From positions 1,512,532 through 1,576,531 of the forward strand of contig OZ242014.1 in assembly GCA_965204815.1 (NCBI GenBank): a stretch of DNA of 64,000 nucleotides, written 5' to 3'. Origin of the DNA: Dehalococcoidia bacterium (GTDB lineage Bacteria > Chloroflexota > Dehalococcoidia > Lucifugimonadales > CATOSD01). The notes under the pieces are model-generated. The model saw only the letters and a list, made by a program, of their open reading frames with translations, searched no databases and was not told where the DNA came from. Each line of letters begins with the position of its first letter. Position 1 is the first letter of the stretch. Shown here one piece after another: positions 8,951 through 40,821 of this stretch. The position numbers were made by a program, and so were the translations under genes.

Positions 8951-8980
8951 TTTGCACCGCGTTGTAAACGTTGATATATT
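8951..8980 (+). promoter_or_regulatory. Candidate sigma-70-type promoter for the island-1 operon
   Basis: TTTGCA (8951-8956), 18-nt spacer, TATATT (8975-8980), about 40 nt upstream of the methyltransferase ATG. Confidence 0.35.
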
Positions 8981-9019
8981 CTGCTCAAACGCGTGGTTCT
9001 GCATCAAGCGAGAACGTGT

Positions 9020-10983: not shown

Positions 10984-11019
10984 GCGGCAATGAACTCGGT
11001 TGCGAAAAGGAGAGAGTGA

Positions 11020-13320
11020 ATGAGCGAGCGAATCGCGGACATAACGCCGTCGCCCAGAATCCTCAGGATGCTAGGGAGGATAGACTTCCACCAGTGGCAG
11101 TGCCTAGCGGAGCTCATAGACAACGCTGTAGATGCGTTTCTAGTTGGACGAGAATCCGGGCATGGCACCATGTTTCCGCAAGTGAACGTAGAAATCTCTA
11201 GCAATGCTGAAATCTTGCAAGGGATAGGGACTATACGGGTTACAGATAATGCCCCTGGCATGGCATTGGATAAGTTGGAAAGCGCGGTCAGGGCTGGATT
11301 CTCAGGAAACAACTCAGTAGACAAGCTTGGCCTGTTCGGGATGGGTTTCAACGTCGCGACGGCAAGGCTCGGAGCCTGCACAGAGGTGTGGTCCACTAGA
11401 GTTGAAGATGAAGTGTGGAGTGGGGTGCGTATTGATTTTGATGAACTCGAAGAGTCAGGATCATTCGCAACACCATTTCTCCAACGTCCCAAGGCGCCAT
11501 TTGAGCAGCGCAGACATGGAACCGAAATCATAATCTCAAAGCTAGATGTTGAACGCGTCAGATACCTAAGAACCCCTGGAGGACTAAGGGCGACCAGGGA
11601 AAAACTCAGCAGGATTTACAACAAGATTATGAGAGAGGTTGGACTGCGGGTGTTAGTGGCAGACCAACCACTTGCTACGCGGGACTTCTGCGTCTGGGAT
11701 GAGGGCAGGACTGTGCCAAATTCCCGTTTTGGCCGTGTTCCGGCCCGTTTGCCAATTCATCAGGACTTTGGAAACCGGAATTATTGTGAAGACTGCTGGG
11801 TGTGGCTTCTCGAGGCCGAAGAGACGTGTCCTGCATGCAACAGCAGCAGAAACCTCCGTATGCGCAACAGGCAGGTTACTGGATGGATAGGGATACAGAG
11901 ATTCTTCGATCTGGAGGACTATGGAATTGACCTGATCCGAAACGGCAGGATTATCGAGGAACGCACGAAGCACTTCTTTTCGTGGGAGACTCCAGATGGC
12001 GATAGATTGCCTGAGTATCCAATAGAGCAACAGCATTGGGGTGGACGTATAGTCGGTGAACTGAGCATTGACTTTGTGCCACTGGAAGGACACCACAAGG
12101 ATGCATTTGATCACAATACGCAAGAGTGGCGGATGGTATTGGCAGCCGTCCGCGGTCGGGGGCCTATTCTGCCGAACATTAGGAAAGATCGCTTCGGGTA
12201 TGATGACGAGAATGACTCCCCCTTGGCGAGACTTCACTCTGCATACAGGCGAGGTTCGCCTTGCGGCTTAAACACGTTGGTGCCGGGAAACAGTGCTGGA
12301 AAGGGTATCAACACCGAACCTCAGCGGTGGGCAACCCTCTTCTGGGAAGGTAAACCTGATTACCAGTCGGACAAGATATGGCATGACGCAGTTCTCTTTG
12401 GTGAAGAGGCAAGAAACAAGAACAAGGGCAAGAAGCCAAGAGATGACAGGGAAGGAAACGACCTGTTCGACGAACCCGACGAACCAGGTGAAGAAGAGAC
12501 CAAGGAATCACCAAGCACGGATGTGGAACATGAACGTGATCCATTCCTTTCATTTGAGGCAGATCTTCCTGAGATGAGCGGCAGCCCAAGGCTGCGCGTG
12601 CAAACGGAGAGGCTAGTTCGGGGTTCGTTAAGTCAGGGATTGCATCTAGAACTCGCGCCAGTGGGTAACAACTTGACGGTCATTTACGATCCTAACCATG
12701 AGATTTTCACGAAGACTCTCGCTGATCCTCTTGGTTGCGTGTTGGAAGAGTTAGGATATCAATTCCTACAGCGAAGTGGCCAAACACAGGTCAACTGGCC
12801 TATATCTCGGATTGTTCATGAGTTAAGGAAGCGTCACTTCGCTTCGTCATTAGACAGCGTAGAAGAGGTGCGGGCGGAGTCCATAGGGCTGCTGAACGAC
12901 CTCATCGAATGGTACGTAGAAGGACTAATGAGTCTCTCCCCATTGCCTGACGATGAAGTGGATGACGAAGAGCGCGCGCGCGTGGTCCAAGGTGTCGTCC
13001 GCATGGACAGGGCTGGTCTGGAAAGAGCAGCTGAAGTCATTCGAACAGGGCTCTACCCGAAGTACATCGGGCATCAGGTTTTGCCAGCTCTTGTACAGCG
13101 GCGGCCCGAATTGGTGCTTGATGGAAAATTCTTCAGTGTTTCATTCACGGATGTCCCTGAGGAGTTGAGGGCACAAGTTGTTGAGCGAGTTACTACGCCC
13201 ATCCGAGATCTACTTTGGATTGCAGAAACTGACGATGCTGGTGGGTCTGGGAATGAGTGGCGCAACATGCTGGCCCGTGCCGCTGCCAGCTTGCGGCTTC
13301 TGTCAGCTTGGAGGTGCTGA
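11020..13320 (+). CDS. GHKL-superfamily ATPase (HATPase_c_3 / MORC-MutL-like) with internal zinc ribbon and acidic linker
   Basis: N-box ELIDNAVDAF, G1 box VTDNAPGM, G2 box GLFGMGFNVA. Zinc ribbon CEDCWVWLLEAEETCPACN. Acidic tract DLFDEPDEPGEEE. Confidence 0.8.
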   Translation: MSERIADITPSPRILRMLGRIDFHQWQCLAELIDNAVDAFLVGRESGHGTMFPQVNVEISSNAEILQGIGTIRVTDNAPGMALDKLESAVRAGFSGNNSVDKLGLFGMGFNVATARLGACTEVWSTRVEDEVWSGVRIDFDELEESGSFATPFLQRPKAPFEQRRHGTEIIISKLDVERVRYLRTPGGLRATREKLSRIYNKIMREVGLRVLVADQPLATRDFCVWDEGRTVPNSRFGRVPARLPIHQDFGNRNYCEDCWVWLLEAEETCPACNSSRNLRMRNRQVTGWIGIQRFFDLEDYGIDLIRNGRIIEERTKHFFSWETPDGDRLPEYPIEQQHWGGRIVGELSIDFVPLEGHHKDAFDHNTQEWRMVLAAVRGRGPILPNIRKDRFGYDDENDSPLARLHSAYRRGSPCGLNTLVPGNSAGKGINTEPQRWATLFWEGKPDYQSDKIWHDAVLFGEEARNKNKGKKPRDDREGNDLFDEPDEPGEEETKESPSTDVEHERDPFLSFEADLPEMSGSPRLRVQTERLVRGSLSQGLHLELAPVGNNLTVIYDPNHEIFTKTLADPLGCVLEELGYQFLQRSGQTQVNWPISRIVHELRKRHFASSLDSVEEVRAESIGLLNDLIEWYVEGLMSLSPLPDDEVDDEERARVVQGVVRMDRAGLERAAEVIRTGLYPKYIGHQVLPALVQRRPELVLDGKFFSVSFTDVPEELRAQVVERVTTPIRDLLWIAETDDAGGSGNEWRNMLARAAASLRLLSAWRC

Positions 13321-14991
13321 ATGCCGGGGTTCCTCGGAATTGAGCGATTGAGCCTCGGTCCTTGGCAAGCCTTCGAAAGGGCTGTACAGAGGTTGCTAGT
13401 ACATGCTGGGTTCGACGATGTGTTACTTGTGGGCGGAACTGGCGACGGTGGGGCCGATATCACTGCCAACCGCAACAGCCGAACCTTGGTAGTACAGGCA
13501 AAATTTAGATCCAGAGGTACATTACTAGGCACGGACCCCGTGCAGGAGGTGGCGATCGGTGCGGGGAAGTACGATGCACAGATTGCTGTAGTGGCCACAA
13601 ACACTGGATTCACAGAAGCTGCAATTGAACGTGCCGAAGAGTTGGAGTTAGACCTCGGCGTGAAGTTCTTGCTTTGGAACCGTGATTTTCTGTCAATGCG
13701 CTTTCGGCGGTTGGCTCCCTACTCGTCGGAACGGAAGGACCTGCGACCTTACCAAGAAGCCGCGGTGGAGAGAGTCAATTCCAAAATCATGCACGGTGCA
13801 GACAGGGGTCTACTCTTGATGGCGACCGGGCTTGGAAAGACGAGGGTTGCTGCGGGCGTGATTGAACAATGGATTGAAGACCGCCCAAGTGATGAAGTCC
13901 TGGTGTTGTCACCTTCGCGCAGCCTCGTTCCGCAGCTTGAGTCCGAACTTTGGCCTTACCTTCCGAAGTCCGTTGCAACACATGTTCTCACAGGATCCGA
14001 AAAGCCCAGCTTTGAAGGGGGGGTTACCGTTGCAACTGAGCAATCGATGCTTCAACAGTTACCTGATGCTCACGGCCGTTTCGGTCTGGTAATCGTAGAC
14101 GAAGCTCATCACGCGCCTGCCGATGGCTACCGCCGCCTTATTGGGGAACTGGCGCCCAAGTTCCTTTTCGGCATGACTGCAACGCCGTGGAGAAGTGACC
14201 ATCAAAATCTCGAGGAGATTTTCGGCGGACCTACTTACACTGCCAGTATCGTGGATGGTATGCAGCTAGGCTATCTTTCAAAGGTCGACTACCGGATGCT
14301 TGTAGATGACATTAACTGGGACTGGGTAAGAAGCGAATTGGGCGATGGGATCTCAGTTAAGGAACTCAATCGCAAACTGTTTATACCGGAGAGAGATGAA
14401 GCAACGGTTATGAAGATACGCCGGCACTTGGAAGCGGTTCTTGACCCCCGTGCTCTTGTGTTTTGCCGATCCATTTTGCATGCGGAGAGAATCCGGAATC
14501 TCCTCCAAGCGGAGGGTTTGTCAGCGAAGGTCCTACACAGTAAACTGGGTCGCTTCGAATCGGCTGCAACACTGAGGGCGTTTCGTTCAGGTGAAATTCC
14601 AATTCTGGTGACCGTCGACATGGTTAACGAAGGCATTGATATCCCAGACGTCAATCTGATCGTATTCCTCCGGGTGACGCATTCTAGGCGCATCTTTCTT
14701 CAGCAGCTTGGACGAGGGCTTAGGATAACAGAGAGCAAAGACATCGTCCGTGTACTTGATTTTGTGTCGGATGTACGAAGGATTGCTGAAGGTATGCGAA
14801 TCAATCGCGATGCCCTGTCACTGGCAACGAATTCAGACTCCGAGCTGGTTGTATACCCCACGGGCGAAGTCGTGAGTTTTGAGGGTGACAAGAGTCTGGA
14901 TTTCTTTCGAGAGTATCTGGCTGATGTTGCTGAGTTAGAAGAAGGAAACGATGACTCAAAGCTGAAGTTCCCTGCTGTCAGGCGAGCGTAG
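13321..14991 (+). CDS. Mrr-like PD-(D/E)xK restriction endonuclease domain fused to an SF2 DEAH helicase (ResIII + Helicase_C)
   Basis: N-terminus FERAVQRLLVHAGFDDV..GDGGADI..LVVQAKFRS (Mrr_cat pattern). Walker A MATGLGKTRV, VIVDEAHHAP, GMTATPWRSD, and C-terminal QQLGRGLR. The ATG abuts the upstream TGA (TGAATG). Confidence 0.85.
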   Translation: MPGFLGIERLSLGPWQAFERAVQRLLVHAGFDDVLLVGGTGDGGADITANRNSRTLVVQAKFRSRGTLLGTDPVQEVAIGAGKYDAQIAVVATNTGFTEAAIERAEELELDLGVKFLLWNRDFLSMRFRRLAPYSSERKDLRPYQEAAVERVNSKIMHGADRGLLLMATGLGKTRVAAGVIEQWIEDRPSDEVLVLSPSRSLVPQLESELWPYLPKSVATHVLTGSEKPSFEGGVTVATEQSMLQQLPDAHGRFGLVIVDEAHHAPADGYRRLIGELAPKFLFGMTATPWRSDHQNLEEIFGGPTYTASIVDGMQLGYLSKVDYRMLVDDINWDWVRSELGDGISVKELNRKLFIPERDEATVMKIRRHLEAVLDPRALVFCRSILHAERIRNLLQAEGLSAKVLHSKLGRFESAATLRAFRSGEIPILVTVDMVNEGIDIPDVNLIVFLRVTHSRRIFLQQLGRGLRITESKDIVRVLDFVSDVRRIAEGMRINRDALSLATNSDSELVVYPTGEVVSFEGDKSLDFFREYLADVAELEEGNDDSKLKFPAVRRA

Positions 14992-15046
14992 TTGCCTTGC
15001 GAGCCGTCATGTTTCTCCAGATGCCGTTGAAGTTTGCAGAGATAAC

Positions 15047-16531
15047 ATGGTGATCCATGTAAGAATACCTTCATGGACGCCTTGCAAGGTTGACCCAGTC
15101 TCATTCGATTGTAGCGAGTGCGAGATTGGCTGGTCCTCATGCCGACTAAAGACTGACGATAGCCTACGCCATTACTTTGCATCACTGAGCAGACGTCGGA
15201 ATGGAGTCTCCCCAACGTCCTATGGATTCGAGGTCTGGGTTGAGGAACTTGTAGCCAGTTTTCTCGAAACCCACGGATTGAGTGTTACTGCCCAGATCTT
15301 GCTCGAATATCTAGCACCAGAAATTCCACCGGATGTGTCAGAAGCGAAATTGCGCCACATCTTGATGCAGTCTTCGCGCTTCGTGGAAACGTCGCCAGGC
15401 ATGTTTAATCTGGCACCTGGCCGAATCCGGAGTGGGAGTGAGCTACCTGGCCTCACACCTTCTTCGGGGACACTACTAGAGGATTTGCTTTCTCGGGCCA
15501 ACTTGCTCGCCAGAGACGAGCAGTTGGTTAAGTTCAAAAGGCTAGCTGGGTACAGGTTCTTCATTACTCATCATCCCAGAACAAGAGAGATTGCTGCCAA
15601 GACAATTCGGGAGCTGTCGGACTGGGCACTTAACCACCGTGGCTGGAGTGAGTTCGACATCTATAAGTTCGCAGTGGGTCCAGACGGTGTCGCTCAGGCA
15701 GCAAACGATATGCATGATATTGCTTCAGAGGACGACCTTGACAGGACGCATAGATTGTTATCTGCCTTATCGGCGACCGAGTGGGGCGACTTTGGCTCGA
15801 TTGATTCGACTAGAGAAGCCTTCCGCGAATTGAGGGATGAACTGATACTTGCTAATCTCAAGCTAGTATCGTCTCAAGCCATACGATGGGCAAGGGGTCA
15901 GTTCCCAAACTACGCCGATCTCTTTCAGGAGGGGTTTTTTGGACTGACTATAGCAATCGATAGATTCGATCCCTATCGTGGAAACCAATTCTCTACGTAT
16001 GCGACTCCTTGGATCAGGCAGAGGATCACAAGGTCCGTTGCTAACTTCGAGCGCACGATTCGCATTCCCGTTCACTTGCACGATCGCATCAGCGATTTTC
16101 GTCATGCGCTTGACGAACATTATAGGGAACTTGGACACAAGCCTACAGTGAGCGAATTGTCGGCAAGGCTGGGGTGGAACACTGCAGAAGTTGCATTCGC
16201 CCTGAGTAATTTCCAGGAAGTTGATTCACTTGATAGCTTACTGGATGACCCCAGCCGCTCATTTGATGGTGATGCTGCATTCCATGTGAATCCCACTGAG
16301 ATGATCGTTGAGCAGATCGCTACAGAGGATGTTGAGAAAGTCCTGAATGCACTGAATGACAGGGAGGCCAAAATCCTAAGGCTAAGATTTGGACTAGGAG
16401 AAGACGGATACCCCCACACCCTCGAAGAGATAGGCAAAATATATGGGGTTACTCGTGAAAGAATCAGGCAGATTGAGAGCAAGGCAAAGAAGAAAATCTT
16501 GCGGAAGTATCAGTACCGTCACTTCATCTAA
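15047..16531 (+). CDS. Sigma-70 family sigma factor (regions 2, 3, 4; RpoD-like) with a roughly 270-aa N-terminal extension of unknown function
   Basis: Region 2 DLFQEGFFGLTIAIDRFDPYRGNQFSTYATPWIRQRITRSV, region 3 RTIRIPVHL, region 4 TLEEIGKIYGVTRERIRQIESKAKKKIL. Confidence 0.8.
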   Translation: MVIHVRIPSWTPCKVDPVSFDCSECEIGWSSCRLKTDDSLRHYFASLSRRRNGVSPTSYGFEVWVEELVASFLETHGLSVTAQILLEYLAPEIPPDVSEAKLRHILMQSSRFVETSPGMFNLAPGRIRSGSELPGLTPSSGTLLEDLLSRANLLARDEQLVKFKRLAGYRFFITHHPRTREIAAKTIRELSDWALNHRGWSEFDIYKFAVGPDGVAQAANDMHDIASEDDLDRTHRLLSALSATEWGDFGSIDSTREAFRELRDELILANLKLVSSQAIRWARGQFPNYADLFQEGFFGLTIAIDRFDPYRGNQFSTYATPWIRQRITRSVANFERTIRIPVHLHDRISDFRHALDEHYRELGHKPTVSELSARLGWNTAEVAFALSNFQEVDSLDSLLDDPSRSFDGDAAFHVNPTEMIVEQIATEDVEKVLNALNDREAKILRLRFGLGEDGYPHTLEEIGKIYGVTRERIRQIESKAKKKILRKYQYRHFI

Positions 16532-16573
16532 GCCGCCAGTGCCGCAGCTCACTTGCAGAGTGACGCGGCGCCG

Positions 16574-16603
16574 TTGACCGCCGCAACCCACAGGCGATAG
16601 AAT
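16574..16603 (+). promoter_or_regulatory. Candidate promoter for the PHP/acyl-CoA synthetase genes
   Basis: TTGACC (16574-16579), 18-nt spacer, TAGAAT (16598-16603). The same TAGAAT -10 recurs upstream of other backbone genes (34434 region, 59810). Confidence 0.35.
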
Positions 16604-22125: not shown

Positions 22126-22995
22126 GTGCTCATTCCCTTTACCGGTCCTCTCGACCTGATAACCACGCTGGAGAGCGGCCAGGCGTTCCGCTGGCGGCGC
22201 GAGGGCGAATGGCTTACCGGCGTTGTGTTCGAGAACATCATCAGGGCGCGCCAGACGCCGGATGGGGTGGAGTTCGCGTGCGGCCCCGACGACGAGGAGG
22301 CCATCGCGCCGCTGTTCCGGGATTACCTGCGCCTGGACGACGACCTTGAGATGATCCGTGACCGCATTCGCGTGGACGACCGCATCGGGGCCGCGCTGTT
22401 GCGCTATCCCGGACTGCGCGTGCTGCGCCAGGAGCCGTGGGAGTGCCTGGTCTCGTTCATCTGCTCGGCGAACAACAACGTGCCGCGAATCAGTGTCAAC
22501 GTTGAGGACATCGCCGAGAACTTCGGCAGGCCCCTTTCGTTCGGCGAGTGCCGACGCAGCGCGTTCCCCTCTCCAGCCGAGCTGGCACAGGTGGAAGAGC
22601 AGGACCTGCGCGCGCTCGGTCTGGGATTCAGAGCCAAGTACGTCGCGGGGGCGTCCCGCATCGTGGCCGCGGGCGACCTGGACCTGTTCGCGCTGCGCGA
22701 GGCGGACTACGACGAGGCGCTGACGGCGCTGCTTGCGTTGCCGGGAGTAGGCGACAAGGTGGCCAACTGCATTCTGCTCATGTCGCTGGACAAGCGGGAG
22801 GCTTTCCCGGTTGACGTGTGGATAGATCGCGCACTGCGGGAGTGGTACCCGGAGCACGTCATTCGCGCCGATGGCAAGCCACTCACCCGCGCCGCCATGC
22901 GGCCCTGGGCGCAGTCCTACTTCGGCGAGTACGCCGGATACGCCAACCAGTATCTCTTCCAGGGCCGCCGCCTGCTGAATAGGAGCGGAGCATAG
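22126..22995 (+). CDS. ogg: 8-oxoguanine DNA glycosylase/AP lyase (Ogg1-type, HhH-GPD)
   Basis: GTG at 22126, 2 nt after the dinG stop. OGG_N-like LESGQAFRW, HhH-GPD LPGVGDKVANCILL and FPVDVWI. The long track ORF 21379-22995 overlaps dinG out of frame in its first part. Confidence 0.8.
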   Translation: MLIPFTGPLDLITTLESGQAFRWRREGEWLTGVVFENIIRARQTPDGVEFACGPDDEEAIAPLFRDYLRLDDDLEMIRDRIRVDDRIGAALLRYPGLRVLRQEPWECLVSFICSANNNVPRISVNVEDIAENFGRPLSFGECRRSAFPSPAELAQVEEQDLRALGLGFRAKYVAGASRIVAAGDLDLFALREADYDEALTALLALPGVGDKVANCILLMSLDKREAFPVDVWIDRALREWYPEHVIRADGKPLTRAAMRPWAQSYFGEYAGYANQYLFQGRRLLNRSGA

Positions 22996-23055
22996 GGTGC
23001 CGCGAGCGGCGGCGTGGAGGTTGGCGAGGCGTTCTCATACTATTTGCGGATGGGC

Positions 23056-23079
23056 AGGCTGACAAGGGTGGGTCAGCCT
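23056..23079 (+). terminator. Hairpin downstream of ogg (possible terminator), at the left edge of island 2
   Basis: AGGCTGAC (23056-23063) / GTCAGCCT (23072-23079), 8-bp stem, followed by a T/C-rich tract. Confidence 0.4.
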
Positions 23080-23205
23080 TTCCCCAAATCCTTTTTCTCC
23101 TTCAATGAGGAAGGCCAACAGGAGAGCGTAGATTGTAGAAGTCATCAAGTAGCACGTTGTGTATAATGAATCGGCCGCATACTTTGCTATTGGATCGAAC
23201 TCCAA

Positions 23206-24546
23206 ATGACTGACGTACAGGAGATTCTGCTCTCAACAATAGCAGAAAAGCGCCCCTTAATTCTCCTATTGGGCGAAGATGCTTGGAGCGACTCGCCACA
23301 GGGTGATGTCCTTCTGACGTCCGCACTCCAGAGGCTCTATGGGATCACCGAGCAAAGGAGCGGGTGGTCGGGGATGCTCACAGGAGAATCCGTACCCTCT
23401 GGGCATTATGACTGGCTAGCAGAACGCTTTGAGCGACGAAGGCACCCTCCATTTGTCGAAGTGTTGAGGGACCTCCCATGGGGCGCAGTGTTCACATCGT
23501 CGATAGACCCGACGCTCGTGAGGCTGTTTTCATATCGAGGGAGAGAGCCCGAGCCCATCCTAACTGAGGGGGAGCGTCCGCGCGCTGCCCGGAGTACGGT
23601 GCGACCACCCTTATACTATCTGTTTAGTCGCGCAGGTGAGCAGGACTTTAAGGCGCAACCACCAAGCAACCGGCGAGAACTAAACACTCGTCGTGCCCAG
23701 CATGCGGTTCCCTTACTCAACCGAATTCGGGAAACTGCGACGCCCCTAGGCACAATTGTCGTTGACGGGCTGTTGCGGGGAAACGGATGGCTCAGAATCC
23801 AGGATCTGCTAGGTGCACTTGAAGGAGCTTCGGCACATCAGATTCTATGGTTTGGCGGCAAGCCCGATCTACCTCCAGAGGATGCGGACTACTTTACGGA
23901 ACTTGTGCAAGATGGGGAAATAGTCGTTTCGGAAAAGCGACTTGGAACCGTCACTGCTGAGCTCAAAGCTACGGGGTGGCTTGCCGACATCGTTCCACTT
24001 GAATCTGAAGACGCCGGTCAAATCAGCTTCGCATCAGGTGGAGTGTATGAAGTTCCACCTGATGTCCGACTTAGAGTCGAAGCGGTGGCTTCAATCGTCG
24101 ACGACTCTTGGACTTCTTTCCTTCCACCACTCGGGCCAGATTCTAGGTACGATGCATTTCGTAGATTCCACGGTGCCCTAGGTGGGGCTCGACTTCTGGT
24201 AGAGGGTGTCAGAAGAGATTTTGCGATCGAGAGAGACTTTGAGCAACAGCTATCGAAGCAAGTGTTCGCCGCGCTTGCAGATCATTCAAGGCTCGATCTG
24301 CCTATAGTAATCGAAGGCCAATCTGGGGTTGGTAAGTCCGTAGCCTTGGCACGTCTTGTGGCTAAAGTAAGGGAAGAAAAGGCAGCGGCCGTACTCTATT
24401 CGATTGGCCGTGTCCCTCAATCCCAAGAAGTCTCAGGATTTTGCCAGGCGGTTGAGCGATCAGATGCGCCTGTGACGCTGATTGTATGCGATGCCAACAG
24501 GAATATCGACGACTATGACGAACTGTTGAGCGGACTGAGGGCCTAG
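23206..24546 (+). CDS. Island-2 protein A: divergent SIR2-like (SIR2_2-pattern) N-terminal region plus the P-loop NTPase N-half (Walker A/B); likely the 5' part of a split STAND-type gene
   Basis: PLILLLGEDAWS, AVFTSSIDPTLVRLF, PLYYLFS and ILWFGGKPDL mirror the SIR2_2 block order, but GAG, N/D and H positions are substituted. Walker A IEGQSGVGKSVALARL. Walker B VTLIVCDANR sits about 20 aa before the stop. Confidence 0.55.
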   Translation: MTDVQEILLSTIAEKRPLILLLGEDAWSDSPQGDVLLTSALQRLYGITEQRSGWSGMLTGESVPSGHYDWLAERFERRRHPPFVEVLRDLPWGAVFTSSIDPTLVRLFSYRGREPEPILTEGERPRAARSTVRPPLYYLFSRAGEQDFKAQPPSNRRELNTRRAQHAVPLLNRIRETATPLGTIVVDGLLRGNGWLRIQDLLGALEGASAHQILWFGGKPDLPPEDADYFTELVQDGEIVVSEKRLGTVTAELKATGWLADIVPLESEDAGQISFASGGVYEVPPDVRLRVEAVASIVDDSWTSFLPPLGPDSRYDAFRRFHGALGGARLLVEGVRRDFAIERDFEQQLSKQVFAALADHSRLDLPIVIEGQSGVGKSVALARLVAKVREEKAAAVLYSIGRVPQSQEVSGFCQAVERSDAPVTLIVCDANRNIDDYDELLSGLRA

Positions 24547-24635
24547 GGAGACGTGTTGTAGTAGTTGGATCACAGTATCGTGTTTCTGCCAACGAAAGCG
24601 GGGATCAACATCCACGCCTTGAGGCCACGTCTGGC

Positions 24636-26603
24636 TTGTCAGCAACTGAGAGGCAGAAACTGCTCGAGCTAATTGGTTCCTTTGACGTAGGCACGCAGTT
24701 TCAACCAGAAGGCGAGCACTTCTTGGCGTTCTTGTACCGTCACTTGCCGGCCAGCAGACCACACATCGGCTCTGGTCTCGGCGCGGAGGCAAGAGCGACC
24801 GTGCAAGTGTTGGATGAAAGGGGCAATCAGCAACAGCCAACGCCCGTAATCAGCAAGTTACACCAACAACTCGTTGAGAAGGGGTACATAAGCGAGTATC
24901 AGGCTCTCTTTGATGACCGACAATCCGACGAATTAGACGCTAATGAGCTCTCTGCGGGAAAGATCGTGGATATGGTCATGGTGGCTGGCAGGCTGAACTG
25001 CCCAGTTCCCGTGAACGTCCTTTTACGAGCAGTTAGCGACCAGTATCAGAGGTTTGACTCCACGCTAGTCTCCAGCCTATTCCGTGATCTCGACTTGTTT
25101 AGATGGGACTCTGGTGACTCCCAAGGCAACGAACTAGTTGTGCTTCCCCGGTTGCCGCTTGAGGCGCAACTCATCTGTGAACGTAGGCTTGGGAGTACGC
25201 AAGCCGAAGCTGGCGTAATCGTTGACTTGATAGGCTCGGTTCGGCTTGGGCTTGACGGGACTCACGAACGAGCATTCCTGCTTAATCTCCTTCAGCAAGT
25301 CGGACGCGACGGACCTCGGGGTAGTGCTTACAGGCATACCTATGCGGACTTTGCTCGAAAACTTACCGAACTGCGTAATCAATACAATGTGGTTGACGCC
25401 AGCCTAATGTTGCAGGAATCTGCTTTCCGAAGGAGTGCAGTGCGGGAAGAGCAAGTTGACGACGAACTTCACTTCTCACTATTAGAAGAAGCACGTGATG
25501 CGGTACAGACTGCACTAGACGGAATTGACAATGGACAGTTGCGGGCAGCAAGGCGAACGCGGCAAAACCTCCTTGTCGAACGCGCGGCACTCTATGGGTT
25601 TCTCGCTAACGACCGTGCCAGGCGAAACGAGATATCTACGGATATATGGTCTGCGTACCAAGCTGCAAGGGTTGCAGTTCGTCAAGCGGTAAGCGCAGCA
25701 GACAACTATTATCCCTACGATGTAGGAATTTGGAGCCCTGCCGACCTATTCGAATCTGCTGATTTGACAGAATCACAACGTGCGGAACTGGCGGCGGACA
25801 TATATTCCACATTGGATCAGGTGGAGCGGAACTCACTGCCACCGTCCCAAAGACAGAAGTTTCGGAGGCGCCAGATGACTGTCGGCGGTGTGCTCGGAAA
25901 CCAGGCACTCACAGACGCCGCCTACGTTGAACTTGAACGCCTGGGGTCGACTGCCGGATATTTCTTGCGCGCGCGAGGAATTGCCCCTGAATTGGGAAGC
26001 CAAGAGGTTGAAGTAACTCTAACCGCGGACATTGAGAGAGCCCAGAGAGCTGCTGACTTTTTGACTGAGCGTTTCGACAAGATTCGACAAGATGAGCGAT
26101 GTCTGTGGTTGCTACTGGAGAACCGTTGGATCACTCTGATGAGGCGTCGGCCACTTCGTGGCCAGCGTCAACCATTGCCTGAAGGCGATGCTCGTCTTGA
26201 ACTTCTCGACATCATCCGTTCGCTTAACCTTGCTGCCGGTGACTCGGCACGGTACGGGACTCGCTATCTTGAGGCAGTGCTCATATGGTTGTCGAACGAC
26301 TATATTGCCGCACGCGAGATCTTTCGACAACTCGATAGAGAAACCGATAATGTTTACCGAGGTCGAGTCTTTCGGCGTCACGTGATATCCGACTCTAGTG
26401 GCGGCCCCAAGGGATTCACCGGACGGATTGAGGACCGAACTGGACAAGACCGATGGCGGCTTCGGGTAAACGAACTCGGCCAAACAATAGACTTGCTCGA
26501 AAGAGATTTCTCCCGCGAAGACATACAATATGGACGGACACTGTCCGGATTCGCCATTGCATTCAATTTCATTGGTCCAATTGCTGATCCCATTAGGCGA
26601 TAG
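24636..26603 (+). CDS. Island-2 protein B: continuation of the NTPase core followed by about 600 aa of helical region and a small C-terminal domain
   Basis: The frame is open from 24519. In-frame upstream peptide GRRVVVVGSQYRVSANESG...RLEATSGLSATERQKLLELI resembles the post-Walker-B strand and signature helix of STAND/AAA NTPases. TTG start per the track, with no good RBS. Confidence 0.5.
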   Translation: MSATERQKLLELIGSFDVGTQFQPEGEHFLAFLYRHLPASRPHIGSGLGAEARATVQVLDERGNQQQPTPVISKLHQQLVEKGYISEYQALFDDRQSDELDANELSAGKIVDMVMVAGRLNCPVPVNVLLRAVSDQYQRFDSTLVSSLFRDLDLFRWDSGDSQGNELVVLPRLPLEAQLICERRLGSTQAEAGVIVDLIGSVRLGLDGTHERAFLLNLLQQVGRDGPRGSAYRHTYADFARKLTELRNQYNVVDASLMLQESAFRRSAVREEQVDDELHFSLLEEARDAVQTALDGIDNGQLRAARRTRQNLLVERAALYGFLANDRARRNEISTDIWSAYQAARVAVRQAVSAADNYYPYDVGIWSPADLFESADLTESQRAELAADIYSTLDQVERNSLPPSQRQKFRRRQMTVGGVLGNQALTDAAYVELERLGSTAGYFLRARGIAPELGSQEVEVTLTADIERAQRAADFLTERFDKIRQDERCLWLLLENRWITLMRRRPLRGQRQPLPEGDARLELLDIIRSLNLAAGDSARYGTRYLEAVLIWLSNDYIAAREIFRQLDRETDNVYRGRVFRRHVISDSSGGPKGFTGRIEDRTGQDRWRLRVNELGQTIDLLERDFSREDIQYGRTLSGFAIAFNFIGPIADPIRR

Positions 26604-26604
26604 A

Positions 26605-27492
26605 ATGCAGTTCTCAGAATTGAATGCGGAAGTCGAAAACCTACGCCGGTCACTTAGGAGCTTTGTGGGCGAGAACGCTCTTGAGGAAATCAACGTTCAA
26701 GCTCCGGCACGTTATGACGAGGCCTCGTTTCTTCGCTTAGGTGCGTGGAGCTATGTTCTCATCTTTGAGGCTGGCAGAGTGACGATTCCATTCCTACTTA
26801 AGCTTCCTTCCGGCCTGGGTACGCCGCAGTCCAAAATGAAGGAAACACTCGATCTGGTGCACGATCTCCGTACTTGGAGCTTCCATAACCTGAGTTTTGC
26901 TAGTGAGCGCGAGCTTGAAATGTCGAGGAGGACTACGCTGTGGTTTATAAGAAACTCCGGCTCCAGTCCCCCTAAGGATATCGCAGGATGGAGCCGCAGC
27001 TTTGAGTCCCTTTGTATCGACGTACATGCTATTGTCGCCCACTGTAAAGCTGCGTTCGAATGTGCTTTGTCCTCACCTGAAGACGAGCCGACGATAGTTG
27101 ACGACTTAAATCGCCGAGTGGATCGTAGTTGGCCTGCGTACAGATTCGACGAACTCGTTAGCGACGCCGTTATGCGTATTGGACAGAAGCTCGACGTCCC
27201 TACATTCCGTCAAAGCAGGCTCTCGAAGTGGCGAAACTATCTGCAGACGATTGCGGAGGGCGATGAACCGGAGACACAAATCGTACGCTTCATTGAGCGC
27301 GACGTTCTTGACTATTTTGAATCCGTACTCCCCATTGACGGCAAAGACGTCATGGCAGAGCTAGGTCTGAGCCCCGGACCGGCAGTAGGTAGAGCCTTAA
27401 GCAATGCTCGTCGCCTTTACGGGGCAGGAGTGACTGATCGGAACAAGCTACTAGCCTGTCTTCAAAGGGACGCCGGAAGGTTTACAACTTAA
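26605..27492 (+). CDS. Island-2 protein C: unknown function; possible HEPN-like Rx4H motif and a C-terminal motif resembling the CCA-adding enzyme/poly(A) polymerase C-terminal region
   Basis: ATG at 26605, 1 nt after the protein B stop (TAGAATG). DLRTWSFHN gives R-x4-H. C-terminal DGKDVMAELGLSPGPAVGRALSNARRLY matches the G(K/H)DL..LG..PGP..G pattern. Confidence 0.5.
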   Translation: MQFSELNAEVENLRRSLRSFVGENALEEINVQAPARYDEASFLRLGAWSYVLIFEAGRVTIPFLLKLPSGLGTPQSKMKETLDLVHDLRTWSFHNLSFASERELEMSRRTTLWFIRNSGSSPPKDIAGWSRSFESLCIDVHAIVAHCKAAFECALSSPEDEPTIVDDLNRRVDRSWPAYRFDELVSDAVMRIGQKLDVPTFRQSRLSKWRNYLQTIAEGDEPETQIVRFIERDVLDYFESVLPIDGKDVMAELGLSPGPAVGRALSNARRLYGAGVTDRNKLLACLQRDAGRFTT

Positions 27493-27628
27493 CCATCGAT
27501 ATTGTTGGTTGCGAAAAAGAACAAATCGGGGTGCAGAGCAAATGCTCCGCTCGATCATGCCCACCGTCCGAATTATAGACTTCACCAGCCCAACCGGAAC
27601 CCCTGCGGGGTAAATTGCGGAGAATTGC

Positions 27629-27672
27629 AGTATTCAAGTGGATCGATCACGTGGTAATCGCCTTCACCCGAC
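27629..27672 (+). pseudogene. Orphan 5' fragment homologous to the start of the VOC/epimerase gene at 29366-29752
   Basis: AGTATTCAAGTGGATCGATCACGTGGTAATCGCCTTCACCCGAC matches the reverse complement of 29710-29752 (AGTGTTCAAGTGGGTAGATCACGTCGTAATCGCCGTCAACGACC). GTA replaces the GTG start codon. Confidence 0.55.
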
Positions 27673-27674
27673 AG

Positions 27675-28073
27675 GCTGGCGCAAGTGGAGGAGTCGGCGT
27701 TGCGCAAACTCGGGCTGGGCTTCAGGGCCAAGTACGTCGCGGGTGAGGCCCGCATTGTGGCCGCGGGCGACCTGGACCTGTTCGCGCTCCGCGAGGCGGA
27801 CTACGACGAAGCCCTCGCCGCACTGCTCGAGCTGCCGGGCGTGGGCGACAAGGTAGGCAACTGCATTCTGCTCATGTCGCTGGATAAACGGGAGGCGTCC
27901 CCGGTTGACTTGTGGATAGACCGCGCGCTGCGGGAATGGTACCCGGAGCACGTCATTCGCGCCGACGGCAAGCCGCTGACCCGCGCCGCCATGTGGCCCT
28001 GGGCGCAGTCCTACTTCGGCGAGTACGCTGGCTACGCAATCCAGTACCTGTTTCAGGGCCGCCGCCTGCTGAA
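27675..28073 (+). pseudogene. Orphan 3' fragment of an ogg homolog (direct repeat of 22581-22979)
   Basis: 399-nt gap-free alignment with 22581-22979, with about 51 mismatches by hand count. Encodes LGLGFRAKYVAGEARIVAAGDLDLF...LPGVGDKVGNCILLMSLDKREASPVDLWIDRALREWYPEHV. It has no 5' half and no equivalent stop. Confidence 0.8.
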
Positions 28074-28139
28074 GAAGGGTGGCGGAAAGAAGTGTGTGGG
28101 ACGGAGGGCGCGGACCCAGGGTCCTTTCATTATCCGTCG

Positions 28140-28555
28140 CGGCAACCTGCCGACGGGTGAGGGCAACGGCGTCCCTTCCGCTTATCACCTCTCCCCCAAC
28201 TCCAACCCATTCGCGCCCGCGTACCCCGAAAAAAGCGTCACTTTCCCGCGCCACCCGTTCCCTTCCGTGCGCCATCCATTCTCATCCGCGCCCCACCAGT
28301 CCTCATTCCTGCGCCATTTCTCACCACTAATCCGCCCCTATCCCGCATCTTCGCCAACCCTCTTGATTCTATAGCACGACCGTGCTATTTTCTACAGCAT
28401 AGGCGCTGCGGCCGCCGATTGCGGATCGCCTGGTAGGGGCGGGTTTCAAACCCGCCCGCCGCCGGCCCAGGACCACCATCGCGTACCTGCCACATTCCGC
28501 GCAATGCACGTGACGAACCTTAACAACTTGGCTCACAGAAAGTGACACAAACATC
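28140..28555 (-). repeat. Dispersed non-coding repeat, copy B (inverted relative to copy A at 8385-8900)
   Basis: The reverse complement aligns block by block with copy A, including the GGGCGGGTTTGAAACCCGCCC hairpin (28438-28458) and three 21-bp phased units (28243-28305). Confidence 0.7.
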
Positions 28556-28660
28556 GGGCCGCCCAGCTACGGAATAGGCGGAATGTAGCAGAACTGAGCA
28601 GATTTTTCGGAAGGCACCGCACAAAGTCCCTGACCCTCTCTCCGAGCCGGAGAGGGGAGA

Positions 28661-29299
28661 ATGAAAAGACCCTGCGCACGGAACGAGAAATCGCGCCGCA
28701 GATTCGCTCCTTGTGCTATGCTATATCTGATGACCGCCACCCGACTCACCCTGTTCGCCGCGACTCTGATCTGGGTTGCCCTCGCCTGTTCGTCTCCCGA
28801 GCCGACGCCGACGCCTGAGCCGACTTCCACGCCGGCTCCCACGGCCATCCCCGTACCGACGGCGCCCCCTGAGCCAACGCCCGAACCCACTCCCACGCCG
28901 TCCGGCCAGCCCACGCGCGGGCTGTTCGAGTACATCCGCGCGGTCTCGTACCTCGAGGCGAACCTGTGGGAGGAGGCCATCCCCGCTTACGGGCTGGTGA
29001 TTCGCATCCTTCCGGACATGGCCGTTGCGTACCACGGGCGGGGATACGCCTACTACAACGAGGCCATCGAGGAGGAGAACGACAACCTGTTCAGGCCCGC
29101 GATGGAGGACTACGACAAGGCTATCGAGCTAAAGCCCGAATTCGCGCAGGCGTACAAGGACCGGGCGATCCTGCACCACCACTTGGGCGACACGGAGGCC
29201 GCAATCGCCGACATCGAGCGCGCGGTGCGTCACTACGACCCGCGTCGGCAGCCCGTCGGCCTGAACGAGGCCAGAGAGCTTCTGAACCAGTGGCGCTAG
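28661..29299 (+). CDS. TPR-repeat lipoprotein with Pro/Thr-rich linker
   Basis: Signal/lipobox-like LIWVALACSS, PEPTPTPEPTSTPAPT linker, and TPR-like AYHGRGYAYYN and AQAYKDRAILHHHLGD. The true start may be the internal Met at 28718. Confidence 0.7.
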   Translation: MKRPCARNEKSRRRFAPCAMLYLMTATRLTLFAATLIWVALACSSPEPTPTPEPTSTPAPTAIPVPTAPPEPTPEPTPTPSGQPTRGLFEYIRAVSYLEANLWEEAIPAYGLVIRILPDMAVAYHGRGYAYYNEAIEEENDNLFRPAMEDYDKAIELKPEFAQAYKDRAILHHHLGDTEAAIADIERAVRHYDPRRQPVGLNEARELLNQWR

Positions 29300-37894: not shown

Positions 37895-37946
37895 GTGGTT
37901 ACGATACCAATGGTGTCGCAAGTGACTTGCTCCCGTTGGGAGATCT

Positions 37947-37971
37947 GAGGGGCCGAATAGGCCCCTCTTTT
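37947..37971 (+). terminator. Rho-independent-terminator-like hairpin between the promoter and the NYN gene
   Basis: GAGGGGCC (37947-37954) / GGCCCCTC (37960-37967), loop GAATA, followed by TTTTGTGTT. Confidence 0.45.
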
Positions 37972-37988
37972 GTGTTGGTGAAGTTTTC

Positions 37989-38750
37989 ATGCCATTGCGA
38001 ACAGTGATATTCATAGATGGTCAGAACTTTCGAAACAGCCTTCGCAGCTTTCGGTTCAGTTCCGACCCGCCACACCCGCAAACCCCCCAATACCAGCTTG
38101 AAGAATTGCACTTCGATTGGAGCAAGTTCTTCAAGGCGGTCATCGACAAATTTGACGAGAGCACGGGTTGGGAGCATCAACTGATCAGGGTCTATTGGTA
38201 CTTCGCAAGGGACATCAGCCCTTGGGAGGAACGAAGGGACTTGGCCCAGAGAGTGGTGGATAGGTATCATCTGGAAGTCGATGGACTTACTGTCCAAAAG
38301 GTGGTTGACCTAGCTCAAGAATGGTACCGCCGCGAAAGGTCATACTTCGAGTCCCTCAGGGAGAAGCGATTTGAAAATATTCAACGCGATGTGAATTTCC
38401 TGGAGTTCAAGTACGTCGGACAGTACGTCGTTCGTCCCTTCACTCCGTACCGCGGTGTAACATTGAGCGATGACGGAAAAATTCAATATCGTGGAAGACA
38501 ACAAGGCGAAAAGGGAGTTGATACCGGCATCGCCGTTGACATGATATCCAAAATGCCTTACTACGACACCGCCATCCTTATCAGTGGTGATTCAGACTTC
38601 ATACCAGTAGTCGGCTATCTGAAGGATAATCTCAAGTACGTTTACCAATTCTCATTGGCAAGCGGCGTGCCACCCTCAATCCGATACTTGTCCCCCTGGC
38701 TTAGAGGATTAGTAGATTGTTTCGAAGCGTTCACCGAATTGGAATTGTAG
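37989..38750 (+). CDS. NYN-domain (LabA/limkain-b1-type PIN-like) predicted ribonuclease
   Basis: VIFIDGQNFRNS, EKGVDTGIAVDM and AILISGDSDFIPVV are the three acidic NYN motifs; 253 aa. Confidence 0.8.
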   Translation: MPLRTVIFIDGQNFRNSLRSFRFSSDPPHPQTPQYQLEELHFDWSKFFKAVIDKFDESTGWEHQLIRVYWYFARDISPWEERRDLAQRVVDRYHLEVDGLTVQKVVDLAQEWYRRERSYFESLREKRFENIQRDVNFLEFKYVGQYVVRPFTPYRGVTLSDDGKIQYRGRQQGEKGVDTGIAVDMISKMPYYDTAILISGDSDFIPVVGYLKDNLKYVYQFSLASGVPPSIRYLSPWLRGLVDCFEAFTELEL

Positions 38751-38839
38751 ACTAGATTCCTCAATAAAGAGTCTGGAATACCCCGTCCGATACTCTCCGC
38801 GATTGATAGCAGAATCGTCCAACTTCAAAGTATGGCTAC

Positions 38840-39079
38840 ATGACAAGCAGAATGCTTGAACTACTGACCAGTTACTTGATGGACGACCTGGATCTTGTGT
38901 CGCTTGAAGACCTCGTGGTTCCTCTCGCGTGGGAAGAGGACGGTCCAGCGCAAGACGTCGTTGATCGGGTCGCCGCCGAGATAGCATTGGTCAAGGATGG
39001 CGCTTCCGACGAAACGATGTTCAGAGAGCGCATTGAAGAGATTATCGCGTCCTCTGCCGCGCCCGCTCGAAACGCCTGA
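38840..39079 (+). CDS. Small acidic hypothetical protein (79 aa)
   Basis: ORF only; Asp/Glu-rich with no recognisable motif. Lies between the two convergent RNase-like genes. Confidence 0.3.
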   Translation: MTSRMLELLTSYLMDDLDLVSLEDLVVPLAWEEDGPAQDVVDRVAAEIALVKDGASDETMFRERIEEIIASSAAPARNA

Positions 39080-39118
39080 ACAATCTCATAGCGTCCAGAC
39101 CGGAACCTGCCGAATAGC

Positions 39119-40753
39119 CTAGCGCCTGCCCCGCAGCTTGCGTCCGATGCGAGCGAATTCCGGCAACACGCCCTGCTGTCCGATTCCCAGGAATGTCCTG
39201 AAGCAGTCGGTGATTACCTCACTTGGTATTGTGCTACTGCTCTCGTGTTCGGCTGGGTTTCTACGGTCGGCAAGCTGCCTAAGCGCAATGGGCAAGGACT
39301 CGACCATGAACTTCTCATCAGCTTGCCCGAGACCTCTTGAAGTACAAAAGTCCAGGAAGAAGCTGTCCTCACAGACGTCAACGTAGTTCCGCACACTCGG
39401 GTAAGAGCCTAACCGGCGTTCGGCTACTTCGTCCTCGTAACCCTGAAACTCCGGATAGGCACTTTTGCTTCTAGCCAACGGTTGCCATATGAACTCGTAG
39501 CACATCTCCTCGGTTGCCCTGAGCAATTCGTTGAGAATGGACTCTCGACGCACTCTCTGGGTTGAGCTCCACGTGTTGTCAGCCGATATGAGCGCTTCCT
39601 GAGCGCGCGGAGGAACAGTCTCCCAACTGTTCCCGAAAAAGTAGGTCTTCAGCCGCCGTTTTGCAGCCTTTTCTTCATCTTTCGCCCTCAGTTTGACGTA
39701 TTCACTCTGGCTAAGCTGAGCACTCGCCCACGCATGAGCGCCATGCCAGTATTCGCTCCACGTTAGCGACCTGCCCTGCTCATCTGTGGTTTCTTCTTCG
39801 ACACCAGATACATTCCAGGATATGGCCAATTCCTTGCAATCCCGCGCGACCTGTGCCCAGCCGTCAGTAGAAGATGCGCTTGCCCTAACAAGCTCGAAGA
39901 CTGATTTTGACTCTTCCAACGAGACCTGCAGCCCCGTCAAGTGGTTTTCCAAGACAGGCCGCAACAATGATTCCACTGGGCCAATTGCTTCGAGGTCCTC
40001 CGCGTCATAACGTTCTCCCATAGGGATTGCATTGTGATTAACTGCCAACTCGTAGCAGATCATTGCCTCGGCAAGATAGTGAAGGGCCTCCACATACTCA
40101 CGATCGACTCTGCTTACCCGGCTTAACTCCACGAATGCGAGGGCGGAAACAGCCACCAGTGAGGTATCGAATGCGGGACTCTCATAGCCTAAGCTCACGC
40201 CCTGAACACCACCAAGTCGCTTCAGTGTGCGCTCGACCTTGAAGAGGCAGTCCTGAACCTCTTCAGACAACCCTTCACTTCGCTTGAGTCTGAATGCCCG
40301 CGCAGCAGCGATATGGAGGTAAGTCTTAAGCTCCTCTTCCCATCGGCCATCGCTGACATCAGGCTGGTAAGGCACACGATGTCGCCTTTCGAGATACTCA
40401 AGACATTCCAGCATCAGACGCTCTTGTTCTTCCGACAACTGTTCCGCTGGAAGCCTGCTAGTACGCCATCTCGGGCGTCCCATTCGGCGTTGTGATCTTG
40501 TTATCTGAGGAAAGTACTGACTCCAGAACAGTTCTAGAGCGTCATCAATTGGACTCCGACCTTTAATCTCGGACGACCATTCGACGCTCTCTACGAAAGG
40601 CCGTAGTCGAATCACGTCCAGACGAGAGTACCCCACTGCCACCAACTCTCCGCTAGATGCGTCCTCCGAGGGAGGATAATCAACGTCTGTCTCCCTGACC
40701 AACTGATTCCACTTGTCTCGAACGATTGCCAGTTCAGTGTCTTCGAATTCCAT
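39119..40753 (-). CDS. Large helical protein with C-terminal HEPN-like domain (R-N-x3-H motif)
   Basis: 544 aa. C-terminal LRQLADRRNPAEHESS contains RNPAEH, matching the HEPN Rx4-6H signature with Asn after Arg. The rest is unassigned. Confidence 0.55.
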   Translation of the reverse strand: MEFEDTELAIVRDKWNQLVRETDVDYPPSEDASSGELVAVGYSRLDVIRLRPFVESVEWSSEIKGRSPIDDALELFWSQYFPQITRSQRRMGRPRWRTSRLPAEQLSEEQERLMLECLEYLERRHRVPYQPDVSDGRWEEELKTYLHIAAARAFRLKRSEGLSEEVQDCLFKVERTLKRLGGVQGVSLGYESPAFDTSLVAVSALAFVELSRVSRVDREYVEALHYLAEAMICYELAVNHNAIPMGERYDAEDLEAIGPVESLLRPVLENHLTGLQVSLEESKSVFELVRASASSTDGWAQVARDCKELAISWNVSGVEEETTDEQGRSLTWSEYWHGAHAWASAQLSQSEYVKLRAKDEEKAAKRRLKTYFFGNSWETVPPRAQEALISADNTWSSTQRVRRESILNELLRATEEMCYEFIWQPLARSKSAYPEFQGYEDEVAERRLGSYPSVRNYVDVCEDSFFLDFCTSRGLGQADEKFMVESLPIALRQLADRRNPAEHESSSTIPSEVITDCFRTFLGIGQQGVLPEFARIGRKLRGRR

Positions 40754-40821
40754 TTTGCATTACCACGTTCCGATCAAGTACTTCGCCTTGATACATGCCA
40801 ATAGCCTCGGCCTTGCGATAC

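Follow-up and report, generated by a model that had tools for sequence, protein, structure and literature searches.

A horizontally acquired STAND NTPase and partner gene pair from a Dehalococcoidia bacterium as a candidate two-component defence system of the Avs type

Introduction

The STAND/Avs (antiviral STAND) proteins are the bacterial counterparts of the animal and plant NLR immune receptors, and the activation mechanism of SAMD9/9L, an antiviral and disease gene in humans, is only now being resolved. Here we describe a pair of genes with a related layout in a 64,000-nucleotide (nt) stretch of DNA from a Dehalococcoidia bacterium (hereafter the window; GenBank assembly GCA_965204815.1, contig OZ242014.1, positions 1,512,532 to 1,576,531 of the forward strand). 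The first gene encodes a STAND NTPase of 1131 residues, which in this copy is split by a frameshift into two open reading frames (ORFs), A and B. The second, gene C, encodes an all-helical protein of 295 residues. On balance we regard the pair as a mobile two-component Avs-like system, consisting of a SAMD9-like STAND sensor-switch and a trans-encoded, probably RNA-directed effector, whose role would most likely be antiviral.

The cryo-electron microscopy structure of SAMD9 contains a lid-less SIR2-like domain that does not bind NAD, and contacts between SIR2 domains as well as between the oligonucleotide/oligosaccharide-binding (OB) domain and SIR2 are needed for activation (PMC13600222). Bacterial SAMD9-like STAND proteins that have been named are Avs5, Avs6, which has PNP as its head, and Avs9, which has AlbA_2 there (PMC12680541, PMC13581612). 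Avs9 runs from AlbA_2 through a SIR2-like domain, the STAND NTPase and TPR repeats to an OB domain, around a core of non-catalytic SIR2-like domain, STAND and helical region (PMC12680541, PMC13600222). Avs5 has an active NADase SIR2 domain (PF13289) and an NTPase of the nSTAND3 type (PF20720) (10.1101/2025.07.08.663546).

The NTPase of the window shares with SAMD9 and Avs9 a SIR2-like domain, predicted to be non-catalytic, directly N-terminal to the STAND NTPase, beyond which come a long helical stretch and a small C-terminal domain. In contrast to both, it starts at the SIR2-like domain and carries neither an AlbA_2 (SLFN_AlbA_2) nuclease nor a SAM domain, and its candidate effector lies in a separate, coupled gene of unrelated fold. 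SLFN_AlbA_2 was likewise not detected in the relatives that were scanned. SAMD9 acts by cleaving tRNA, and the tail of C, which resembles that of a tRNA enzyme, forms a parallel to this. However, similarity to SAMD9 was not detected at the sequence level, the NTPase belongs to nSTAND5 in Pfam and the OB fold at its C-terminus is only presumed. Avs5, which has been grouped with the SAMD9-like sensors (PMC13581612), likewise begins with a SIR2 fold and continues with a STAND NTPase and helical repeats. It differs from the present protein, in which other residues stand at the GAG, Asn and His positions, SIR2_2 is undetected, nSTAND3 matches only below threshold, no AVAST model of PADLOC matches and a second gene is obligatory. 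Avs6 joins a SAMD9-like STAND core to a PNP effector that degrades ATP or nucleosides (PMC12680541). A PNP_UDP_1 domain also occurs in the present family, but on the separate partner C and in rare variants only, and it is absent from the window copy.

A sequence-only reading of this DNA by a model had likened the locus to Avs proteins, an apt comparison in view of the SIR2–STAND–helical layout and the structural matches given below. It had also found no system by which to name the locus. This holds in that no PADLOC model fits, but the core layout is that of SAMD9 and Avs9, and SAMD9 is the top structural match. The STAND clade is catalogued in Pfam, and the partner C is without a family.

Results

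ORFs A and B are parts of a single STAND gene. Positions are those of the window, and all features of the cassette and its flanking repeats are on the plus strand. ORF A (23206..24546) covers the 5' part, with a SIR2-like domain at about residues 1–260, a linker at about 260–330 and the first half of the nucleotide-binding domain, including Walker A (GQSGVGKS, residues 371–378, 24316-24339) and Walker B (LIVCD, residues 425–429, 24478-24492). It ends at a premature TAG downstream of a frameshift at 24539..24543. The 3' part lies in the frame of ORF B, which is open over 24519..26603 (ORF B as listed, 24636-26603) and holds the remaining NTPase core (GRRVVVVGSQYR), a helical region of about 600 residues and a conserved C-terminal segment of about 90 residues ending in FNFIGPIADPIRR. 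Aligned with the DNA of each of its two closest loci, L001 and L003, the window shows a single 1-nt gap at about 24541, where it reads CTGAGG-GCC against CTTAGGAGCC in L003. With the base restored the translation becomes LSGLRS/LGRRVVVVGS, as in intact homologues of 1131 residues, and homologues run LSGLRS[LR]GRRVVV without interruption.

The joined protein, built at ...LSGLRA/GRRVVVVGS..., has 1131 residues and can be aligned over its full length with more than 120 database proteins, which are 1126–1140 residues long and 52–84% identical to it. PF25199 (nSTAND_NTPase5) is present in all of the at least 120 full-length homologues among the matches listed. The joined protein itself scores 36.3 bits against this family (E 6e-9) and passes the gathering cutoff of 34 bits, whereas ORF A alone, because it is truncated, stays just below it (32.4 bits, residues 335–445). 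Since full-length homologues carry PF25199, a 1-nt deletion separates the frames and the Pfam cutoff is passed once these are joined, A and B together make up one gene of 1131 codons and the cassette has two genes, not the three that had been counted. Joining A and B after frame correction had already been suggested, and the intact homologues justify this step. By its profile score the NTPase is a member of the STAND family, in agreement with the earlier assignment from the Walker motifs, and G370, G375, K376 and D428 (numbering of the intact homologue P0001) are invariant in relatives down to 25% identity.

The frameshift is unlikely to be a recoding site. Programmed -1 frameshifting at the junction was considered and rejected; an X XXY YYZ slippery heptamer is absent and the homologues are in frame, so the cause is probably a mutation or an assembly error. 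The 2.1 kb of frame B past the lesion contain no further stop or indel and are 84% identical to intact homologues; consequently the lesion, if real, is recent. The window copy of the STAND gene is probably truncated, and this copy of the system inactive, unless the deletion is an assembly error. That the gene is in fact intact and functional in the organism is the less probable case, though a serious one. It is favoured by the undamaged downstream frame and by the position of the missing base, which may fall in the short G run GAGGGCC; indel errors in such runs are common in long-read assemblies. Against it stands the public protein collection, which has the gene C product at 100% identity and no product for A or B, as would be expected of an annotation flagging a pseudogene. 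Another apparently decayed copy is the 473-residue protein P0289, in which about 340 residues of an nSTAND5 SIR2-like head are followed by about 130 residues from the C-terminal part of a C homologue, apparently as a chimera left by an in-frame deletion of the greater part of the two genes.

The N-terminal domain of ORF A is modelled with a SIR2 fold. Its AlphaFold2 model, based on 69 homologues, has a mean pLDDT of 76.6, with better values in the first 250 or so residues and around the P-loop and poor ones in the linker (263–326). Foldseek returned 70 matches in the PDB at E<=1e-3, and the best 50 of the 70 are all SIR2-fold immune proteins with a probability of 1.00, among them SAMD9, ThsA, DSR2, EfAvs5 and KomC/HAM-SIR2. 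Human SAMD9 (9zjs_A) ranks first, with an E-value of 5.7e-7 over 502 aligned columns that span the SIR2-like domain and the start of the NTPase; EfAvs5 (9jap) follows with 4.4e-6, and the SIR2 domains of DSR2, KomC and ThsA reach TMt values of 0.5-0.6. Thus, the SIR2-like call made from sequence is borne out at the level of the fold. In Pfam scans no SIR2 family, including SIR2_2 (PF13289), was detected in A, in joined A+B (E<=1) or in eight distant relatives (E<=0.1).

This head appears to be catalytically dead. Residues were mapped onto catalytic SIR2 domains by motif order, predicted strand positions and spacing. In the loop after strand 1, GED replaces GAG (LILLLGEDAW, residues 18–27; LLGQx in the family). 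TSSID stands in place of a TTNYD-type motif, with loss of the catalytic Asn (AVFTSSID, residues 94–101; TS[SA]xD in the family), and YLFS in place of an hLHG-type motif, with loss of the catalytic His (LYYLFSRAG, residues 136–144; LF[GS] in the family, F139 invariant). The distance between Ser99 and Phe140 is 41 residues, compared with 38–40 between Asn and His in DSR2 and ThsA. The replacements are common to relatives down to 25% identity, so that the loss of GAG and His noted earlier extends to the whole family and to the Asn. Three polar residues of the domain, D100, R112 and R128, are invariant even at 25% identity.

In the helical region of the NTPase protein, profile scans gave weak sequence matches of the PPR/TPR type only. 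Conservation is even along the whole protein, with the last 90 or so residues strongly conserved and the last 30 (FNFIGPIADP) among the most conserved of all. Designer PPR, septin and NtrC P-loop results of a profile-to-PDB search were dismissed as noise, as were sub-threshold THDPS_N_2, Unstab_antitox and RFC matches in ORF B.

Gene C (26605..27492) begins with an ATG 1 nt past the stop of ORF B at 26603, as had been read, and its product is 100% identical to the database protein P0121. It has 188 homologues in a word-index search and 600 cluster representatives at E<=1e-3, nearly all of about 300 residues. These numbers, like those for the joined NTPase, speak against reading frames that arose by chance. 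No Pfam domain was found in these homologues of about 300 residues, and PADLOC holds no family for C. The AlphaFold2 model is wholly helical with a pLDDT of 91.2, and no significant fold match was obtained with it in the PDB or in BFVD by Foldseek (best E 0.35). A conspicuous feature is R89-T-x3-H94 (LRTWSFHN, residues 88–95, 26866-26889), which closes a predicted helix at its C-terminal side. Neither R89 nor H94 varies among 73 close and 13 distant homologues, down to 19% identity, in the context L-R-T-x3-H-N; RTxxxH occurs in about 128 of 132 full-length representatives, and E55, W113, W129 and W209 are also invariant or nearly so. The sequence-only reading had called this motif HEPN-like. 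An all-helical protein with R-x4-H and a polar residue after the Arg does resemble the HEPN RNases (Cas13, Csm6, ApeA, Tha, AbiV), whose activation by induced dimerisation would fit an effector recruited by a STAND protein. In contrast to these, C matches no HEPN Pfam model or structure, and its motif is at the C-terminal end of the helix. The R-x4-H motif is therefore near-universal in the family, but the HEPN label stays a hypothesis.

The tail of C resembles class II CCA-adding enzymes. The segment LPIxGxDVMxxLGxxPGPxVGxxLxxAR, part of an HhH (helix-hairpin-helix)-like module from residue 242 (27328-27420, LPIDGKDVMAELGLSPGPAVGRAL), aligns to the extreme C-terminus of these enzymes (PF13735), and the resemblance covers the last 55 or so residues of the protein. 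PF13735 is found in 49 of 73 members (best E 0.0017), TIGR02692 at E 0.04 and residues 360–411 of human TRNT1 (4x4w) at E 0.46, all sub-threshold. The Bacillus stearothermophilus CCA enzyme (1miv) is the top Foldseek match in the PDB, at a non-significant E of 0.35, and a mycobacteriophage tRNA nucleotidyltransferase has the joint-highest TM-score to the query in BFVD; CCA-adding enzymes are thus the best-ranked interpretable fold matches in two libraries. C differs from them in lacking the polymerase-beta catalytic head. Three homologues of 385–393 residues (P0312, P0325 and P0366) have an insertion of about 100 residues past the FEAG helix, and that of P0366 resembles the helix-hairpin-helix of RNA_pol_A_CTD (E 3.5e-4). 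The CCA-tail signals and this variant make a nucleic-acid-binding role of C likely, with tRNA a plausible ligand. The motif could also be a generic helix-hairpin-helix nucleic-acid binder. Hence, the CCA-enzyme-type motif named earlier recurs in five independent weak signals, but the RNA-directed role attached to it is still hypothetical.

The two genes are linked wherever they were found. A single-protein scan of genome contigs matched nothing; an alignment-based scan of the contigs did find relatives, and in 13/13 of the loci collected first a C homologue lies immediately 3' of the NTPase gene. These loci come from Dehalococcoidia, Spirochaetia, a gammaproteobacterium, Bryobacterales (Acidobacteriota), Chlorobium, Chloracidobacterium, a Methanosarcinaceae archaeon, three Streptomyces and a cyanobacterium. 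Nine further loci (L014–L022) show the same order, and in all the pair is seen in eight bacterial phyla and one archaeon. The stop of the NTPase gene and the start of C overlap by 1–4 nt or are separated by 1–28 nt in the relatives. Because the genes are adjacent and coupled in all loci examined, NTPase and C form an obligate operon that is kept over very large evolutionary distances. The translational coupling proposed for the window copy is thereby a property of every relative examined, and the co-occurrence that was to be looked for in other genomes holds in all 13 plus nine loci.

Some C homologues carry a further domain. TIR_2 is fused to P0258 and P0317, and PNP_UDP_1 to P0336, together three of the best 150 of 600 representatives, and the fused parts match PADLOC models for ThsB-type and CBASS PN effectors. 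For two of these fusion genes, P0258 and P0336, the genomic context was looked up, and both still lie behind an nSTAND5 gene. Since the TIR- and PNP-fused forms keep this position, the fusions would mark C as the output arm of the pair and place the family in conflict biology.

The cassette was acquired horizontally. Between about 23000 and 27700 the G+C content is 0.50–0.58 compared with 0.64–0.71 on either side, and G+C at third codon positions (GC3) is 0.51–0.54 (about 0.52) in ORFs A, B and C but 0.85–0.90 (about 0.87) in ogg, the dinG-like gene and the ogg fragment. Both values bear out the AT3-rich block of about 4.7 kb that had been described, all of whose motifs and coordinates were recovered in the sequence. 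Upstream of the insert, ogg is intact (end at 22995; GC3 0.85) and matches OGG_N and HhH-GPD. Its last 399 bp (left copy, 22581..22979) are repeated directly at 27675..28073 (right copy, an orphan ogg 3' fragment), with 348/399 identical positions (87%) in an ungapped blastn alignment, and the translation of the right copy parallels the last 130 or so residues of ogg. The right edge of the insert is therefore exact at 27674, since the second copy begins at 27675. Because both copies have host-like GC3 (0.88 in the right one), we suggest a Campbell-type integration of a circular fragment that already bore an ogg 3' end from a related high-GC genome. The insert holds no recombinase and, as stated before, no integrase, methylase or known toxin family.

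A putative extended -10 promoter element, TGTGTATAAT, was read from the sequence at 23158..23167, 39 nt upstream of the NTPase ATG. A promoter consensus scan made no call for it because a -35 hexamer is missing, and in the insert the promoter and terminator scan gave nothing above chance. An Rfam search found no RNA family inside or beside the cassette. Past the orphan ogg fragment, a stretch of about 600 bp (28000–28700) has a GC skew of -0.21 and no convincing ORF; beyond it a TPR protein with a Pro/Thr-rich N-terminal linker is encoded at 28661–29299.

DNA similarity to the closest relatives (77%) is limited to 23160–27485, that is, to the operon and about 45 bp upstream, and so sets in at the extended -10-like element. 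These relatives adjoin mutL and not ogg. One relative with 66% identity comes from a Dehalococcoidia metagenome-assembled genome, and one copy resides on an integrative and conjugative element (ICE) with a type IV secretion system, a relaxase and a serine recombinase. In locus L015 (ENA ERZ19489113 s9.ptg000010c, a 23-kb locus on a 2.75-Mb contig) the pair lies within a dense defence island with two AAA_15/AAA_21 ATPases, a HEPN and nucleotidyltransferase pair, a SLFN_AlbA_2+HATPase_c_4 protein, an SNF2/NOV_C helicase, HsdR, HsdS and a TIR_2 protein adjoining an LD_cluster2 protein; the HEPN protein (PF05168) of this island is without a clear R-x4-H RNase motif. Other copies are solitary among housekeeping genes. 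In the flanks of 11 further loci, a handful of ORFs match DpdJ, PsyrA, AbiEii, PDC-S02 and PDC-S05 very strongly. The association of the pair with defence loci appears to be real but moderate. No model of PADLOC v2.0.0 matches A, B or C, the intact homologues including P0001, or the distant relatives, which answers the earlier proposal to run PADLOC on the island. That the cassette is a candidate defence system, as the sequence-only reading put it, agrees with the TIR and PNP fusions, the one defence island, the one ICE, the strong matches in the flanks and the restriction-modification-like island 6.5 kb away in the window, and is tempered by this moderate association.

The window contains two further patches of low G+C. 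The first (8400–16600, G+C about 0.51–0.56) lies 6.5 kb upstream of the cassette and encodes a C5 cytosine DNA methyltransferase (8993-10330), an HhH-GPD protein matching the PADLOC 'Type II nicking endonuclease' (10315-10983), a 766-residue HATPase_c_3 protein (11020-13320), a Mrr_cat+ResIII/Helicase_C protein with matches to type IV methyl-directed restriction enzymes (13321-14991) and, at 15047-16531, a protein of the sigma-70 type for which PADLOC gives MzaA as well. These domain assignments suggest a composite island for restriction-modification or modification-dependent restriction. The second (37900–40800, G+C 0.52) encodes a 253-residue NYN-domain protein with weak NYN and HEC-09 matches in PADLOC (37989-38750) and, on the minus strand, an ORF of 543 residues for which Pfam and PADLOC gave no match (39119-40753). 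A bacterial large-type signal recognition particle RNA (186 bits) is located at 3774-4037 and one tRNA gene at 61857-61941. In four other loci (L001, L014, L016 and L022) Uma2-family genes (PF05685) occur within a few kb of the cassette, three of them in tandem in L016; this recurrence may have more to do with the lineage of the hosts than with a shared function.

Discussion

In the mechanism we propose, the NTPase would act as the sensor-switch, composed of a dead SIR2-like head, the nSTAND5 ATPase, the helical region and the small conserved C-terminal domain, and C would be the effector subunit supplied in trans. A trigger would bind to the helical or C-terminal region of the NTPase, which would release autoinhibition and allow nucleotide-dependent oligomerisation. 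By analogy with SAMD9, the pseudo-SIR2 heads may serve as contact surfaces in the oligomer. The oligomer would gather copies of C, and C would then act on RNA, probably tRNA, by means of the R-T-x3-H site and the binding module that resembles a CCA-enzyme tail. Attack on RNA would stop translation and abort the infection. We infer the defence role, the trigger, the oligomerisation, the function of C as effector and its RNase activity and target.

More specifically, the pair might be a split counterpart of SAMD9 and Avs9, in which a pseudo-SIR2 STAND sensor activates a separate tRNA-directed nuclease of undescribed fold, with R-T-x3-H as the catalytic module and a CCA-enzyme-derived tail that binds the tRNA elbow. 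This narrower version is clearly more tentative than the two-component system as such.

Several points weigh against the proposed system. The conservation profile reveals no hypervariable sensor stretch along the NTPase, and a sequence search of the PDB with a profile of the full NTPase alignment detected no similarity to SAMD9, Avs5 or SIR2; the presumed OB-like C-terminus and the mechanism modelled on SAMD9 are drawn from analogy only. The loss of catalytic residues in the head is itself a matter of motif order, predicted strands and spacing. For C, no HEPN profile and no HEPN structure was matched in the profile, PDB and BFVD searches, and all five CCA-tail signals are sub-threshold. The 129 flanking ORFs from 11 further genomes are mostly metabolic or housekeeping genes; tblastn of three family members against a plasmid collection and of one against a phage collection gave no match; and literature searches found no description or experimental report for the nSTAND5 clade or the partner family. 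Finally, the TIR- and PNP-fused variants of C retain R-T-x3-H. These forms have either two effectors or a motif whose function is common to all forms, e.g. the binding of a ligand or partner, and consequently R-T-x3-H could serve binding or regulation rather than catalysis.

Chiefly because of these fused forms, we retain as an unlikely alternative that C is not the effector but an adaptor or co-sensor, which for example reports the state of tRNA or nucleic acid to the NTPase or docks TIR or PNP. In the two-gene form the NTPase itself would then give the output, which could be an unconventional chemistry of the SIR2-like domain or the capture of a factor from host or phage. A non-catalytic task of the C module in every variant would explain the retained motif, and the nucleic-acid-binding type of tail and the lack of a HEPN fold match would suit such a protein. 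Moreover, D100, R112 and R128 are kept more strictly than a passive scaffold might need. However, no member has the canonical NAD-binding and catalytic residues in its head, and the equivalent domain of SAMD9 is a contact surface and not an enzyme (PMC13600222). In a helical protein that is otherwise divergent, an invariant Arg/His pair and a conserved Glu are what one typically sees of an active site. In addition, so few representatives carry an extra effector that the plain form of C must suffice for output.

That the pair is not immune at all, but serves STAND-type signalling or regulation, or is a selfish addiction cassette of the toxin-antitoxin kind that is kept because cells losing it are harmed, is improbable: the mostly housekeeping insertion sites, the absence from the phage and plasmid collections searched, the uniform conservation free of arms-race-like variable regions, the toxin-antitoxin-like tightness of the coupling and the copy riding on an ICE would fit, but both proteins lack a DNA-binding domain or another output domain of the sort found in regulatory STAND proteins, TIR and PNP are hallmark immune effectors, the closest folds to ORF A are immune proteins, an intact C toxin beside a truncated NTPase antitoxin would be lethal if the frameshift is real, and the patchy spread over eight bacterial phyla and archaea with mobility from site to site is the pattern of defence genes.

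We therefore prefer the two-component Avs-like system. The C family comprises about 600 clusters at 50% identity from many bacterial phyla and at least one archaeon. The family has probably been missed by standard defence-discovery screens, because its members come mostly from uncultured environmental lineages and are lacking in model organisms and in the plasmid and phage collections searched. Should C be an RNase, it would be a new one. If the split SAMD9/Avs9 version were true, C would represent a new effector family, the targeting of tRNA by SAMD9-like sensors would have arisen more than once, and the output modules of these sensors (C, C-TIR, C-PNP, AlbA_2) would be interchangeable. The family offers a SAMD9-like core whose output is split off into a small protein of its own. 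This split makes the role of the dead SIR2-like head, and the switching of a trans-acting effector by a STAND oligomer, testable in a two-protein system.

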